Shown here: positions 5,301 to 8,825 of the stretch, in pieces
Layout of the letters: every line of letters begins with the position of its first letter
Numbering within the stretch: position 1 is the first letter of the stretch
Program-made: the position numbers and the translations under genes
Notes under the pieces: generated by a model
Database searches by the model: none
Told to the model about the DNA's origin: nothing
What the model saw: only the letters and a program-made list of their open reading frames with translations
Origin: Armatimonadota bacterium
Lineage (GTDB): Bacteria; Armatimonadota; DTGP01; JAHWJO01
DNA length: 59,167 nucleotides
Assembly (NCBI GenBank): GCA_038240635.1
Contig: JBBRGS010000001.1
Span: forward strand, 1 to 59,167
Reading direction: 5' to 3'

Positions 5301-5857
5301 TCGTGTACAGACCCGAGTCACTTGAGGGCGCGGGGGATTCGCCGGAGGCGCTGCGGGAGTGGACGCGGTTCCCCTTCCCCCGGCAGCGCGGGCGGCGACG
5401 GCTCTGCATCGCGGACTTCTTCGCGTCGGTGGAGAGTGGCCGGATGGACGTGCTTGGGATGAGCGTGGTGACGGTGGGCCGCCATGCCAGCGACGTGACG
5501 GCGAAACTGTTCGCCAATAACGAGTACGCCGATTACCTGTATCTGCACGGGCTGAGCGTGGAGACGGCGGAAGCCCTGGCGGAGTACTGGCATACGCGCA
5601 TGCGCGCGGAACTGGGGCTGGGCGGGGAGGACGCGCCGACGATCCGGGAGTTGTTTGGGCAGAAGTATCGCGGCAGCCGGTACAGTTTCGGCTACCCGGC
5701 GTGCCCGGACCTGGAGGAGCAGTCGAAGGTGTTCGAGCTGCTGCGCCCGGAGCGGATCGGGGTGGCCCTCTCCGACGAGTTCATGCTGGAGCCGGAGCAG
5801 ACGACTTCGGCGATCATCGTCCACCATCCGCAGGCGAAATACTTCACGCTGGATTAG
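2336..5857 (+). CDS. metH: Cobalamin-dependent methionine synthase (5-methyltetrahydrofolate-homocysteine methyltransferase), 1173 aa
   Basis: Full four-module architecture: homocysteine S-methyltransferase domain, pterin-binding domain, B12-binding DxHxxG motif (GDVHDIGKN) and a C-terminal AdoMet-activation domain ending HHPQAKYFTLD. Confidence 0.97.
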   Translation: MSDPSRYDRFREDLERRVLIFDGAMGTSIHTFDLSVEEDFGGLENCSEILVLNRPDVIRRIHDSFFEVGCDAVETDTFGANALVLNEYHIPEKAREINVRAAQLARESAAAFSTPDRLRYVVGSIGPGTKSPSSTDPNLYASYDRLLENYTEQALGLIEGGADVLLVETCFDLLQCKIAVRACADAREQAGVNIPLMAQVTMETMGTMLLGTEISAAVTALEEFPVEVIGLNCATGPELMTDHVRYLSENCPRKLSVLPNAGLPRLENYQTVYDLSPAQLAEHLAGFVEEFGVNIVGGCCGTTPEHLKAVVERVGGLTPRRREPRFVPAASSLMTHVPFEQDASILIVGERTNASGSKKARELLLAEDWDGMVSMAKDQAREGAHILDVNVDYVGRDGPRDMDEAISRFVNNVTLPLMIDSTQPAVMEAGLRRAGGKSILNSTNFEDGEERFAAVLALARRHGAAVVIGTIDETGMARSAEDKFAIARRSYELATQKHDTAPHNIFFDPLALPISTGLEEDRKSGAETIEGIRRIKTELPGVHCLLGVSNVSFGLSPASRQVLNSVFLHECVEAGLDAAIVNASKILPLNRIGEREREVAHELIHDMRRFEGDLCVYDPLAEFTRLFEGKTTKREAMDDSLPIEEKLKRAIIDGEKRGLEANLDTALQSYPALDIINNLLLDGMKVVGELFGSGQMQLPFVLQSAEVMKASVAYLEPHMERVEGDESKGKIVIATVKGDVHDIGKNLVDIILTNNGYTVYNLGIKQPIGTIIEAAEANQADVIGLSGLLVKSTVVMKDNLEELNARGLERYPVILGGAALTRSYVEEDLRRVYQGSVFYAQDAFDGLHLMERVMTGTAVAEPAETSRREERAKRRAAELAEPEETGPPLDRNVPAPPPPFYGSRVVEGIPLSEVFPYVNEVALFRNQWQFKRDKTKTGKEGKDDYTAFVEETVRPIFNQWKARAVAENILQPKVVYGWFPCQSSGDDLIVYRPESLEGAGDSPEALREWTRFPFPRQRGRRRLCIADFFASVESGRMDVLGMSVVTVGRHASDVTAKLFANNEYADYLYLHGLSVETAEALAEYWHTRMRAELGLGGEDAPTIRELFGQKYRGSRYSFGYPACPDLEEQSKVFELLRPERIGVALSDEFMLEPEQTTSAIIVHHPQAKYFTLD

Positions 5858-5868
5858 GAGGCGTTCGT

Positions 5869-6132
5869 ATGTCCCTGCAGCAAAAGACTCTGACCTCAGA
5901 AGAAGCGGCCCGCCTGGGTGATGAACTCTATGAGCGGAAGGTGCTGCCGTCGGTGACAGACGAGCAACACGGTCTGGTCGCCGCGATTGACCTCTCCTCC
6001 GGGGAATTTGCGCTGGCGGAGACAGCCCTCGAAGCGTCAGAACAGTTGCGCGCACGCTTCCCCGGGACGGACGTTTGGTTCGTGAGAGTCGGCCAACACG
6101 CTCTGCATCGGATCGGGGCCGCAGAATGTTGA
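5869..6132 (+). CDS. Small DUF5678-like protein (87 aa), partner of the downstream aspartic protease
   Basis: In-frame ATG at 5869 within ORF 5701..6132. The AGGAG RBS overlaps the metH stop codon (TAGGAG). Sequence ...HGLVAAIDLSSGEFALAETALEASEQLRARFPGTDVWFVRVG resembles DUF5678-type small proteins. Overlaps the next gene by 7 nt (ATGTTGA). Confidence 0.6.
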   Translation: MSLQQKTLTSEEAARLGDELYERKVLPSVTDEQHGLVAAIDLSSGEFALAETALEASEQLRARFPGTDVWFVRVGQHALHRIGAAEC

Positions 6133-6482
6133 AAGGTTCTGTCAACGCCTTTCGTGAGGCGACACTTCAGGTGAACCTCCGAGGCGTGAACGATCTAACC
6201 GTGGAGTTGGTGGTGGATACAGGATTTACCGGCTACCTCACGCTGACCTCAGATCAGATCGTCGCTCTTGGCTGCTCACGAATTGGCCGAAGTCGCGTCA
6301 TGTTGGCCGACGGCAGCGAAGAGATATTCACCCTTTTTGCGGTTATCGCTAACTGGGATGGCCTGCCGCGGACGGTGGAAGCGTATGAAATGACCTCCCC
6401 TCCCCTACTCGGAATGACTATGATGTACGGCCATCATCTCCACATCCACATTGTTGACGGCGGTGAAGCGCTTCTTACCTGA
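6126..6482 (+). CDS. Retropepsin-like (clan AA) aspartic protease, 118 aa
   Basis: In-frame ATG at 6126 in ORF 6075..6482. Catalytic VVDTGFTGYLTL (D-T-G) motif and a size typical of bacterial single-domain retropepsin-like proteases. Confidence 0.7.
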   Translation: MLKGSVNAFREATLQVNLRGVNDLTVELVVDTGFTGYLTLTSDQIVALGCSRIGRSRVMLADGSEEIFTLFAVIANWDGLPRTVEAYEMTSPPLLGMTMMYGHHLHIHIVDGGEALLT

Positions 6483-6552
6483 CCGTCTTGTCAACTTTGC
6501 GCCTGCCAGAACAGAACAATGTCTTAAAATGCGAAAATGCTCAGGTACGGGA

Positions 6553-6797
6553 GGAACCGGGCTGGGGAGGATGCGCCGACGATCCGGGAGTTGTTTGGGC
6601 AGAAGTATCGCGGCAGCCGGTACAGTTTCGGCTACCCGGCGTGCCCGGACCTGGAGGAGCAGGCGAAGGTGTTCGAGGCGCTGCGCCCGGAGCGGATCGG
6701 GGTGGCCCTCTCCGACGAGTTCATGCTGGAGCCGGAGCAGACGACCAGCGCGATCATCGTTCACCATCCGCAGGCGAAATACTTCACGCTGGATTGA
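6553..6797 (+). pseudogene. Displaced copy 2 of the metH 3' end (last ~80 codons)
   Basis: ORF 6537..6797 reads ...GEDAPTIRELFGQKYRGSRYSFGYPACPDLEEQAKVFEALRPERIGVALSDEFMLEPEQTTSAIIVHHPQAKYFTLD. This is near-identical to metH 5608-5857, with a few mostly synonymous changes and a TGA stop instead of TAG. Confidence 0.9.
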
Positions 6798-6826
6798 GGC
6801 TGACCCGCAGCCGTGTATACTGAAGT

Positions 6827-7793: not shown

Positions 7794-7859
7794 ATCGGGT
7801 ATCATGGCTGTTGATCTCGTGCATGCCCTGAGCGGAGAAGCGAAAAAAGGTGGAGACTA

Positions 7860-8231
7860 ATGGACAGGAGCGCCAGGGAGACATCGGGAGTGATCCGATC
7901 CGACCGGGGGCTGATCGTCGCCGGAACCCGGATCACTCTGTACGATGTGCTTGACTATCTCAATGCGGGATGGCCTCCCAAACTCCTCGGAGACCGCCTG
8001 AACCTCACTTCTGAACAGACTCAGGCGGCTCTGGAGTACATCCGCGACCACACGGTGGAACTGGAAACCGAGTACCGACAGGTCCTACACGACGCGGAAG
8101 AGAGCCGTCACTATTGGGAGACCCGTTATCCCGACAGGCGGAACGTGTTGGAGTCTTCGTCGCCATTCGAACGGCGAAAGGCCCTGGAAAAGCGGCTGGC
8201 TGCGCTCGAAAAGGAAACCGTATCGCGGTGA
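7860..8231 (+). CDS. DUF433-family antitoxin-like protein (123 aa)
   Basis: ORF track. ...RGLIVAGTRITLYDVLDYLNAGWPPKLLGDRLNLTSEQTQAALEYI is the DUF433 helix-turn-helix-like core. GTGA overlap with the next gene. Confidence 0.75.
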   Translation: MDRSARETSGVIRSDRGLIVAGTRITLYDVLDYLNAGWPPKLLGDRLNLTSEQTQAALEYIRDHTVELETEYRQVLHDAEESRHYWETRYPDRRNVLESSSPFERRKALEKRLAALEKETVSR

Positions 8232-8623
8232 TCCGTGTTCTGGTGGACCACAATATGGAGGGGCAGGCGCTTCTCCTGTGGGGCGCCCTCGCCGCAGAAG
8301 GATGGCTTGCTCTCCTTCCCGTTCCGCTCCGCTCCTTTGGCGACGTGGGTCTGTCGTTCGACACCAGCGACCGGGAGGTCTGGCGGTTCGCTCAGGAGCG
8401 CGAAATGGTTCTCCTCACCGCAAATCGAAGTCTGAAAGGTGTGGACTCTCTGGAGCGAACCCTGAGGGAAGAAGTGGATTCGGAATCCCTGCCTGTACTC
8501 ACCGTCGGGCAGCCGGAACGTATGGAGGAACGGGAGTATCGCCAGGCGTGTGCGGTCCGTCTGATGGAGATATTCCTGGATTTGGACACGTATCGGGGAG
8601 TGGGCCGTCTCTACCTCCCATGA
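8228..8623 (+). CDS. DUF5615-family (PIN-like/Mut7-C-like) toxin-like protein (131 aa)
   Basis: GTG at 8228 is in frame within ORF 8114..8623. VIRVLVDHNMEG...DREVWRFAQEREMVLLTANR is typical of the DUF5615 partners of DUF433. Confidence 0.65.
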   Translation: MIRVLVDHNMEGQALLLWGALAAEGWLALLPVPLRSFGDVGLSFDTSDREVWRFAQEREMVLLTANRSLKGVDSLERTLREEVDSESLPVLTVGQPERMEEREYRQACAVRLMEIFLDLDTYRGVGRLYLP

Positions 8624-8655
8624 AGGGTCCGCAGTTTCCCCGCCAGGGGATTCCA

Positions 8656-8762
8656 AGCGGATCGGCGTGGCGCTCTCCGTCGAGTTCATGCGAGAGCCGG
8701 AGCCGACGACCCGCGCGACCCTCATCCACCATCCGCAGGCGAAGGACTTCACACTCGACGGA
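8656..8762 (+). pseudogene. Most decayed remnant of the metH 3' end (copy 4)
   Basis: agcggatcggcgtggcgctctccgtcgagttcatgcgagagccggagccgacgacccgcgcgaccctcatccaccatccgcaggcgaaggacttcacactcgacgga aligns with metH ~5750-5857 and shares derived positions with copy 3. Confidence 0.75.
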
Positions 8763-8774
8763 GGGCTGGAGTGG

Positions 8775-8825
8775 AAATTGAAAACAGGCGTCCGGGAGGG
8801 AGTGTATCCCCTGCCCGGACGCCTG
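8775..8825 (-). terminator. Intrinsic terminator downstream of the fasciclin gene
   Basis: Perfect 12-bp stem caggcgtccggg (8785-8796) / cccggacgcctg (8814-8825) with a 17-nt loop. On the minus strand it is followed by TTTTCAATTT. Confidence 0.55.

Follow-up and report, generated by a model that had tools for sequence, protein, structure and literature searches.

The 59,167-nt contig JBBRGS010000001.1 of an Armatimonadota bacterium (assembly GCA_038240635.1), referred to here in its full length as the window, carries behind the cobalamin-dependent methionine synthase gene metH an array of three compact two-gene cassettes, each of them followed by one more copy of the metH 3' end. We propose, with a probability of about 0.5, that this is an integrase-free accretion array, to which addiction-type modules were added at the metH end by insertion with long target duplication. 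The same footprint is present at the 5' end of an MscS-like gene next to metH, and a diverged sister array with a different cassette order was found in a separately assembled contig (L175). The locus had been picked out in a first reading of the letters alone (hereafter the original prediction), which described the four gene ends and the modules between them and compared the whole to an integron using the end of a housekeeping gene as its attachment site.

The intact metH gene (2336-5857, plus strand) encodes a protein of 1173 amino acids (aa), shares 45-59% aa identity with MetH of many phyla and has a GC content at third codon positions (GC3) of 0.87. Comparison of the window with itself by BLASTN confirmed that its 3' end is present four times, all in the same orientation, and the coordinates first given for the copies are off by no more than about 10 nt. 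The last ~240 nt of metH (5620-5857, plus strand) serve as the reference for the repeat. Copy 2 (6559-6800, plus strand; GC3 0.89) corresponds to MetH aa 1096-1173 and keeps a stop codon, TGA as against TAG in the intact gene; 5620-5862 and 6559-6800 are 95.1% identical over 244 nt (E 1e-105) with no indels, and the encoded ends share 96% of their amino acids. Their differences amount to three single synonymous changes, a Ser-to-Ser switch between TCG and AGC and two amino-acid changes, and the ratio of the proportions of non-synonymous and synonymous differences (pN/pS) is 0.48. Copy 3 (7516-7794, plus strand; BLASTN and protein alignment) is, as had been claimed, a mosaic with internal deletions: 7516-7607 matches metH 4376-4467 (90%), 7599-7660 matches metH 4886-4948 (82.5%) and 7651-7794 matches the metH end (5713-5853 versus 7651-7790, 82.3%, E 8e-33; 85.1% to copy 2). 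At the protein level the pieces are collinear and in frame (MetH aa 678-711, 851-865 and 1127-1173), with a 1-nt frameshift and with the stop codon replaced by GGA. Both internal junctions sit at microhomologies of 5-7 nt and, given also the collinearity of the pieces, copy 3 must have started as a metH fragment of at least 1.48 kb that deletions then shortened; where a copy now begins on its 5' side is therefore a result of decay and tells us little of the original event. Copy 4 (8656-8764, plus strand) comprises MetH aa 1139-1173 (5751-5853 versus 8656-8758, 83.5%, E 4e-24). In all the copies the homology ends at the position of the stop codon, so that a constant 3' limit goes together with long and variable repeat lengths (107 nt, 244 nt and at least 1.48 kb before the deletions).

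Copies 3 and 4 are 88.8% identical over 107 nt. They share the substitutions L98R, S105R and I107T, which fall on residues that vary little or not at all among 12 aligned, diverse MetH C-termini, and both have lost the stop codon to GGA. They are thus sisters derived from one copy that was already non-functional. Given these shared non-functional changes, either the copy into which cassette 3 was inserted was already dead, or there was an exchange of sequence between copies 3 and 4. The original prediction had read a decay that rises with the distance from metH and, from it, a serial insertion with the newest cassette nearest to the gene; the decay is not that simple, and the strict form of serial insertion fails. 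The same 3' limit is reproduced in the dead copy, where selection for an intact metH could not act. It is also clear from these repeats that redundant copies decay by point mutation, frameshift and microhomology deletion.

Two further features of the copies can be mentioned here. One serine codon (5801-5809, 6741-6749, 7739-7747 and 8706-8714; about 946 and 3234 in L175) varies among them, being TCG in the intact metH end and in copy c of L175, AGC or AGT in copy 2 of the window and copy b of L175, and CGC in copies 3 and 4. As both serine codon types occur in the window and in L175, this is a hint of old allelic lineages or of exchange among copies. In copies 3 and 4 (7709-7719/7784-7794 and 8672-8685/8753-8766) the derived end CTCGACGGA can pair with the internal sequence CTCCG(A/T)CGAG, located 64-67 nt upstream, and in copy 4 an additional A-to-T change improves the pairing. 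These pairing ends may be the product of a quasi-palindrome template-switch mutation; the overall folding is unexceptional.

As first described, each interval between the metH ends holds exactly one compact two-gene module on the metH strand. Cassette 1 is formed by genes for proteins of 87 aa (5869-6132, plus strand) and 118 aa (6126-6482, plus strand), which overlap by 7 nt. Its ribosome-binding site GGAGG overlaps the metH stop codon TAG (TAGGAGG) and its ATG lies 11 nt downstream, a detail that had been read correctly. The 87-aa protein, to which no family could be assigned, had been called DUF5678-like; this label could not be confirmed, with zero matches in Pfam (even at E<=5), NCBIfam or PADLOC. 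The 118-aa protein belongs to the clan AA or retropepsin-like aspartic proteases, a label that holds weakly (TIGR03698 at E 8.5e-10, below cutoff, and a weak Asp_protease_2 match), and its only close homolog is in L175 (77% aa). Cassette 2 encodes a VapC-type PIN toxin of 157 aa (6827-7300, plus strand) and, after a gap of 4 nt, a 67-aa partner that is presumed to be the antitoxin (7305-7508, plus strand). The PIN label stood by way of homologs (6019 of them, a precomputed PF01850 assignment and the NCBI name "VapC family toxin"), the direct Pfam match having an E value of only 0.024. A gene for 60-73 aa likewise follows the PIN homolog in L081, L082-L086, L088, L089, L091, L173-L175 and most contigs of the L183 family. 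Cassette 3 pairs a DUF433 protein of 123 aa (7860-8231, plus strand; PF04255, E 1e-7), also called on Logan unitig L172, with a DUF5615-like protein of 130 aa (8231-8623, plus strand; PF18480 at E 2.6e-4, below cutoff), the two genes overlapping by 1 nt; the DUF433 label thus stood and that of DUF5615 remained below cutoff. A DUF433 and DUF5615 pair is also present elsewhere.

Judged on the predicted genes, cassettes 2 and 3 appear to have the layout of type II toxin-antitoxin (TA) systems together with a recognised domain (PIN and DUF433, respectively), and cassette 1 seems TA-like by its layout only, its proteins having no recognised toxin or antitoxin domain. The cassettes also look foreign by composition, with a GC content of 52-58% and a GC3 of 0.57-0.70 against a GC3 of 0.82-0.89 in host genes, which gives the region a saw-tooth profile. 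Among the cassette proteins PADLOC matched none besides the AIPR gene of L175 (AbiU-like). Before the PIN gene, at 6794-6821, there is a sigma-70-like promoter match with a TATACT -10 box and a TTGAGG -35 box formed by the stop codon of copy 2, which is a consensus match only.

The second duplication lies at the other side of metH. The intact MscS-like gene (3-590, minus strand; MS_channel domains) runs off the start of the window and contains one repeat arm (352-556). Next to it there is a cassette (711-1795, minus strand) with a PIN_12 protein (711-1316, E 3e-9) and a 157-aa open reading frame (ORF; 1322-1795), co-oriented with the MscS-like gene and with a GC content of 52-60% and a GC3 of 0.61-0.70. 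It is followed by a 5' fragment of the same gene (1785-2075, minus strand; repeat arm 1828-2032), in which the start codon and about 83 homologous codons precede an out-of-frame tail; the duplicated stretch includes the promoter-proximal region. The two arms are 88.8% identical over 205 nt (self-BLASTN, E 2e-71) and differ by 16.5 synonymous and 6.5 non-synonymous changes (pS 0.28, pN/pS 0.16). By our own estimate a pN/pS of about 0.5 would be expected if the duplication had arisen in place and one arm had then decayed neutrally. Since the differences are mostly synonymous, these arms appear to be diverged functional alleles joined by recombination; the metH end and copy 2, at 95% identity and a pN/pS of 0.48, are compatible with an origin from a single target. 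Pooled over four pairs (the MscS-like arms, metH and copy 2, and the two acidobacterial loci L047 and L076 described below) the ratio is 0.18. Both duplications fit one rule, in which an insertion at a point p is accompanied by a long duplication of the sequence upstream of p and leaves one intact gene. The MscS-like gene bears this footprint at its 5' end, which shows that the process is not confined to the end of metH; on this point the original prediction needs correction.

We suggest the following course of events. A founding cassette would have landed directly after the metH stop codon together with a long duplication of the preceding sequence, perhaps when a small circle with "metH end + cassette" integrated by a single crossover of the Campbell type, or else by an equivalent unequal exchange. 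Each such event would leave an intact metH, the cassette and a redundant 5'-truncated copy of the gene end. From then on the copies may act as portable homology, by which the homologous recombination of the host would add, move or swap units at any copy, even a dead one, and units of "metH end + cassette" may also be exchanged between related strains, which is consistent with the data. Recombination between direct repeats would normally delete the insert, so that inserts should be kept only where their loss is penalised, as it is with addiction modules; the array would in this way come to be filled with TA-like pairs. The co-orientation of the cassettes behind metH, and the position of cassette 1 in particular, would favour read-through or coupled expression. 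Of this course, the data show the geometry, the mode of decay, the second use of a dead copy, the allelic look of the arms at the MscS-like gene, the shuffled sister array and, for the contig, the lack of a recombinase and of att-like structure; dependence on recA, stabilisation by addiction, co-transcription with metH and a circular or unequal-exchange intermediate would complete the proposed course.

The geometry of a full gene, a cassette and a 5'-truncated gene copy, on which the original prediction rested, was borne out by the alignments, and the statement that it belongs to no described class was too strong. Restriction-modification systems, likewise addiction modules, have been found inserted with long and variable (30-420 bp) direct target duplications and without mobility genes; some of these duplications overlap gene 3' ends, the mechanism is unresolved, and a life cycle of insertion, amplification via the repeats and release has been proposed for such units (Nobusato et al. 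2000, Gene 259:99; Furuta, Abe & Kobayashi 2010, PMC2853133; Mruk & Kobayashi 2013, PMC3874152). The loci in the window resemble them in three respects: the insert is of addiction type (VapC/PIN, DUF433/DUF5615-like and PIN_12, and Unstab_antitox plus ParE in L076), the direct repeats are derived from the target, variable and longer than 30 bp (244, 107 and at least 140 nt plus the mosaic part at metH; 205 nt at the MscS-like gene), and there are no mobility genes in or beside the insert among the 49 ORFs of the contig that were scanned in Pfam. Unlike in those cases, the cargo here consists of type II TA-like pairs and not of restriction-modification genes, and three events stand in tandem at one gene end, in an array that a diverged relative has kept with its order shuffled. 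In addition, one of the repeats goes back to a fragment of 1.48 kb or more, and the arms of at least one pair resemble diverged alleles and not a fresh in-place duplication. In our literature search, no account of such insertions was found that concerns type II TA pairs or a tandem arrangement. The TA module with direct repeats of Microcystis MaOC1 (PMC7935541) was considered as a precedent and set aside, its repeats being intergenic 152-bp elements and not gene-end copies. As regards Campbell-type integration, it produces exactly the geometry seen here, requires only RecA and a homologous fragment and works with any fragment length; it is known, however, as a laboratory tool, and natural "gene end + cassette" circles would have to be assumed for the present case.

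Mobility machinery was searched for in the window, and the absence of bounding elements noted in the original prediction was confirmed. The Pfam scan of 49 ORFs of the 59-kb window found no member of the integrase, transposase or resolvase/recombinase families, nor is there a recombinase near the cassettes in L175, L047 and L076. Terminal inverted repeats were not found around the cassettes in the window, and by comparison with shuffled sequence none of the four separators folds better (z from -0.25 to +1.67), that is, they show no attC-like structure; the sole notable inverted repeat has arisen secondarily within copies 3 and 4. When the window was scanned for Rfam families and tRNA genes, only a cyclic di-AMP (c-di-AMP) riboswitch and no tRNA gene came up, and therefore the array is not a tRNA-type island. 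Insertion of a transposon or of a Tn7-like element was rejected on the grounds that there is no transposase and no terminal inverted repeat and that the duplications measure from 100 to more than 1000 nt. A tblastx comparison of the window with itself was swamped by GC-rich noise and was not used.

These results bear on a site-specific explanation, which we consider doubtful, according to which the metH 3' end would be the attachment (att) site of a tyrosine or serine recombinase encoded elsewhere. The cassettes would then either lack autonomy and be mobilised in trans, in the manner of integron cassettes or cis-mobilisable elements, or be what is left, in the form of addictive genes, of larger integrative elements, each of which brought a replacement gene end. 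Elements of this kind are well known: phage 21 and e14 carry a replacement 3' end of their target gene icd, and at the 3' end of fda in Streptococcus thermophilus integrative and conjugative elements (ICESt) accrete in tandem with recombinase-less cis-mobilisable elements (CIME), so that tandem accretion at gene 3' ends is not in itself new. They are like the metH array in showing a full gene, an element and a 5'-truncated gene end, with a replacement end that differs mostly synonymously, and in forming tandem arrays by repeated use of one site in which recombinase-less members persist. The geometry at metH is exactly that of 3'-end integration with a replacement end, the homology limit falls precisely at the stop codon in all copies, a dead copy could still serve as target, and the synonymous bias of the differences between copies would equally suit functional gene ends carried by elements. 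The known elements depend, nevertheless, on a tyrosine recombinase and a short defined core, and none was found in this contig; here the repeats vary in length, the elements measure only 0.65-0.85 kb and a 5'-end case lies next door. Besides the missing recombinase and attC-like structure, the fragment of at least 1.48 kb from which copy 3 derives far exceeds an att site, and the 5' limits vary (40-244 nt) with no shared core seen beyond protein-constrained sequence; the repeats begin at MetH aa 1096, 678 and 1139 in the window, at 1084 and 1069 in L175 and at the last 22 and 14 codons in L047 and L076, although deletions after the events blur the original starts. In addition, the MscS-like 5' end would require a second, different specificity, and the remnant version needs three independent reductions to exactly one tight TA pair.

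Viral contigs that carry metH ends were inspected in the same connection. L180 (IMGVR_UViG_3300033181_000233, 1-5000) opens with the last 123 nt of metH, followed by genes for a CI-type repressor, a MerR/excisionase-type helix-turn-helix protein and a YqaJ recombinase. No integrase was seen in this part of the contig. L180 may be a temperate phage at the metH 3' end, and its content would fit the site-specific explanation. Another contig (L179/L191, IMGVR_UViG_3300018080_008403) ends exactly at the stop codon of a 627-nt metH 3' fragment; with a Mu transposase domain, a MuB-like ATPase and a terminase it is a Mu-like transposable phage, was ruled out as evidence for an att site and lends that explanation no support.

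The comparison with integrons that had been drawn for this locus holds in part. Compact co-oriented cassettes between repeats, the frequency of TA modules in chromosomal integrons and the variation in order among relatives are points of likeness; unlike integrons, the window has no intI and no attI/Pc module, the cassettes contain two genes and the separators are fragments of a housekeeping gene without attC-type secondary structure. As a tentative extension of the proposed accretion array, the locus may work as a recombinase-free cassette system, in which units of "gene end + cassette" loop out as circles by host homologous recombination and re-enter any copy in the same or a related genome. 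If this were true, addiction modules and defence genes (AIPR) would accumulate in it by punishing their loss through loop-out, and the array would be a homology-driven functional analogue of the integron on a conserved housekeeping gene. Such a system would occur in one uncultured lineage at least, and the Acidobacteriota would have a simpler form of it.

The relatives of the array were sought with the MetH C-terminus and with the cassette proteins. L175 (JGI 3300034952, 3858 bp) is a sister array with ~75% nucleotide identity to the window. It starts with the last ~30 nt of a metH end, followed by a PIN gene (72% aa) with a 62-aa partner, a metH fragment (aa 1084-1173), the homologs of cassette 1 (87 aa and 118 aa, 69% and 77% aa identity), an AIPR gene, a second metH fragment (aa 1069-1165) and a cupin gene. 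The two shared cassettes thus stand in opposite order and the third one differs (AIPR versus DUF433/DUF5615). The window and L175 agree in the junctions of the metH stop with cassette 1 and with cassette 2 and differ in the right-hand junctions; the identity is 79-81% for the metH ends and 69-75% for the cassettes. L173 (ERZ1758171), whose PIN protein is 80% identical, opens with AAGTACTTCACGCTGGATTGA, the last six metH codons and the stop, and continues with the PIN cassette. The three closest PIN cassettes are all associated with metH and more distant ones are not. With its different cassette order and content, L175 supports the cassette-level dynamics of the original prediction; an empty site was not found. 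PIN homologs of 71% identity or less lie behind other genes.

Such comparisons allow us to consider also a vertical relic, in which old local duplications would have become fixed and would be decaying; local rearrangement would happen now and then, and the cassettes would no longer move. In its favour, the divergence between the window and L175 is much the same for cassettes and metH ends (69-81% identity), decay is far advanced in copies 3 and 4, and the restriction of metH association to the closest PIN cassettes agrees with inheritance at the locus. We regard this explanation as unlikely: each interval has a different cassette, unlike in a simple tandem duplication, the order is reversed and the content is different in L175, and the arms at the MscS-like gene look like diverged functional alleles. 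Furthermore, copy 2 is only 5% diverged, without indels and with its stop codon kept, while cassette 1 is 25-29% diverged from L175; a young-looking copy beside a diverged cassette calls for a recent event or for ongoing exchange among copies.

Several observations weigh against the accretion array that we favour. The pN/pS between the metH end and copy 2 fits a plain in-place duplication as well as it fits the import of an allele. The scan of genome and metagenome contigs with the MetH C-terminus recovered no close relative and no empty site (best MetH 55-59% aa), and the insertion events are therefore deduced and not seen; neither a circular intermediate nor heterogeneity in cassette number was observed. 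The similar divergence of cassettes and metH ends from L175 could mean that the array is largely old and vertically inherited, and not actively mobile. The PIN homologs of 71% identity or less adjoin their other genes without detectable flanking duplication. Lastly, a recombinase encoded elsewhere in the genome would be compatible with the data from this 59-kb contig, and L180 hints that site-specific elements also use the metH end.

The window is a whole NCBI contig and probably part of a metagenome-assembled genome (MAG), and short-read contigs break within the repeats. Both points would agree with an assembly artefact, in which strain variants downstream of metH were collapsed or chained into one contig; this we hold to be very improbable. 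Two independent Logan unitigs from SRR19962014, L081 (window 6766-7767, 1 mismatch) and L172 (7745-8734, 4 mismatches), cross the junctions of cassettes 2 and 3 and together run from copy 2 over cassette 2, copy 3 and cassette 3 into copy 4, whereas the passage from the intact gene across cassette 1 into copy 2 is covered by no independent contig. Moreover, the copies differ by 5-18% and carry frameshifts and deletions, which is not what allelic variants of one site would show, and the separately assembled L175 contig has the same kind of array.

The survey of 161 metH loci from other phyla, 135 of which had at least 500 nt of downstream sequence, yielded simpler cases. In an Acidobacteriota MAG (L076) a 44-nt duplication of the metH end (last 14 codons) surrounds an Unstab_antitox and ParE pair, and in a MAG of the Pyrinomonadaceae (Acidobacteriota; L047) a 66-nt duplication (last 22 codons) surrounds a single ORF of 133 aa; the latter repeat has 3 differences, all synonymous, and its distal copy retains the native overlap with the start of the next gene. 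Two actinobacterial MAGs (L007, 11149-11266; L053, 11122-11248) have the last 40-52 nt of metH tandemly duplicated with a spacer of 24-39 nt and no cassette, and there each copy matches the codon choices of its own gene. About 24 direct-repeat events of this size class were counted in 2.05 Mb of metH loci, and 4 of them involve the metH end, which is enriched in such events since it makes up ~0.7% of the sequence. In a Pyrinomonadales MAG (L048, JBBSUG010000018, 11500-14700) DUF2281, PemK, XisH/XisI and PIN cassettes lie directly behind metH, separated by a 191-nt repeat, possibly a 3' fragment of the PIN gene (judged by eye; no Pfam match), and by an 80-nt copy of the XisI gene end. At L157 (1226-2300) a single 228-aa ORF lies between direct repeats of 45 nt, overlapping with the 3' end of a gene for tRNA-Ser, with no integrase seen in the insert. 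Short MetH C-terminal "proteins" were tried as a route to further arrays and discarded: on long contigs they are frameshift-broken metH genes in long-read assemblies, and most of the others, on short contigs, are presumably contig-edge partials.

The movement of chromosomal TA and small defence modules without mobility genes is a long-standing loose end, and insertion with long target duplication has stood for 25 years without a mechanism, documented mainly for restriction-modification systems. With the metH locus the footprint now includes type II TA-like pairs and is seen repeated to form an ordered array. The locus also shows that a copy can still serve as a target when it is dead, and it offers a diverged sister array with shuffled order for comparison. 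Our proposal makes testable predictions, namely recA dependence, circular intermediates of "gene end + cassette" and stabilisation of the array by addiction. It would also explain why short gene-end pseudogenes and TA pairs occur together, which should be useful for the annotation of MAGs and for finding hotspots.

Regarding the surroundings of the array, a hairpin with a perfect 12-bp stem is present at 8785-8825, where a terminator-like structure had been announced, between the array and a convergent fasciclin gene (8852-9823, minus strand; Fasciclin domain, E 1e-42). It probably terminates transcription from both sides and marks the distal end of the array. In the fasciclin gene, in-frame 16-nt tandem units (9443-9565) occur in the region for the N-terminal part of the protein, and in-frame 12-nt tandem units at 11860-12135 give rise to a long (GGTT)n stretch in a putative lipoprotein of 408 aa. 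The contig is rich in TA modules elsewhere: an Xre/MbcA-type antitoxin with a RES toxin (16260-17455), an orphan HigA-like antidote (39695-40102) and a HEPN protein with a 79-aa partner (41853-42463), none of which has flanking duplications detectable by self-BLASTN of the window; parA/parB are located at 37721-39641. A family of intergenic repeats of ~50-180 nt (13506-13716, 20692-21092 and 26120-26329), 73-95% identical and present in both orientations, contains GGCGGTTGAAACCGCTGCAAC and is possibly a miniature mobile element or a structured RNA. Between URO-D-like and GH127 genes, at 23654-23914, about 8 copies of the 29-nt unit CGACGCCTGACGCGCCGTCTTCGCCTTCC follow one another without spacers, and this repeat is therefore not CRISPR-like. 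Finally, the c-di-AMP riboswitch (RF00379, 82 bits; 21368-21552) detected in the Rfam scan is placed upstream of an NlpC/P60 gene (21727-22437).

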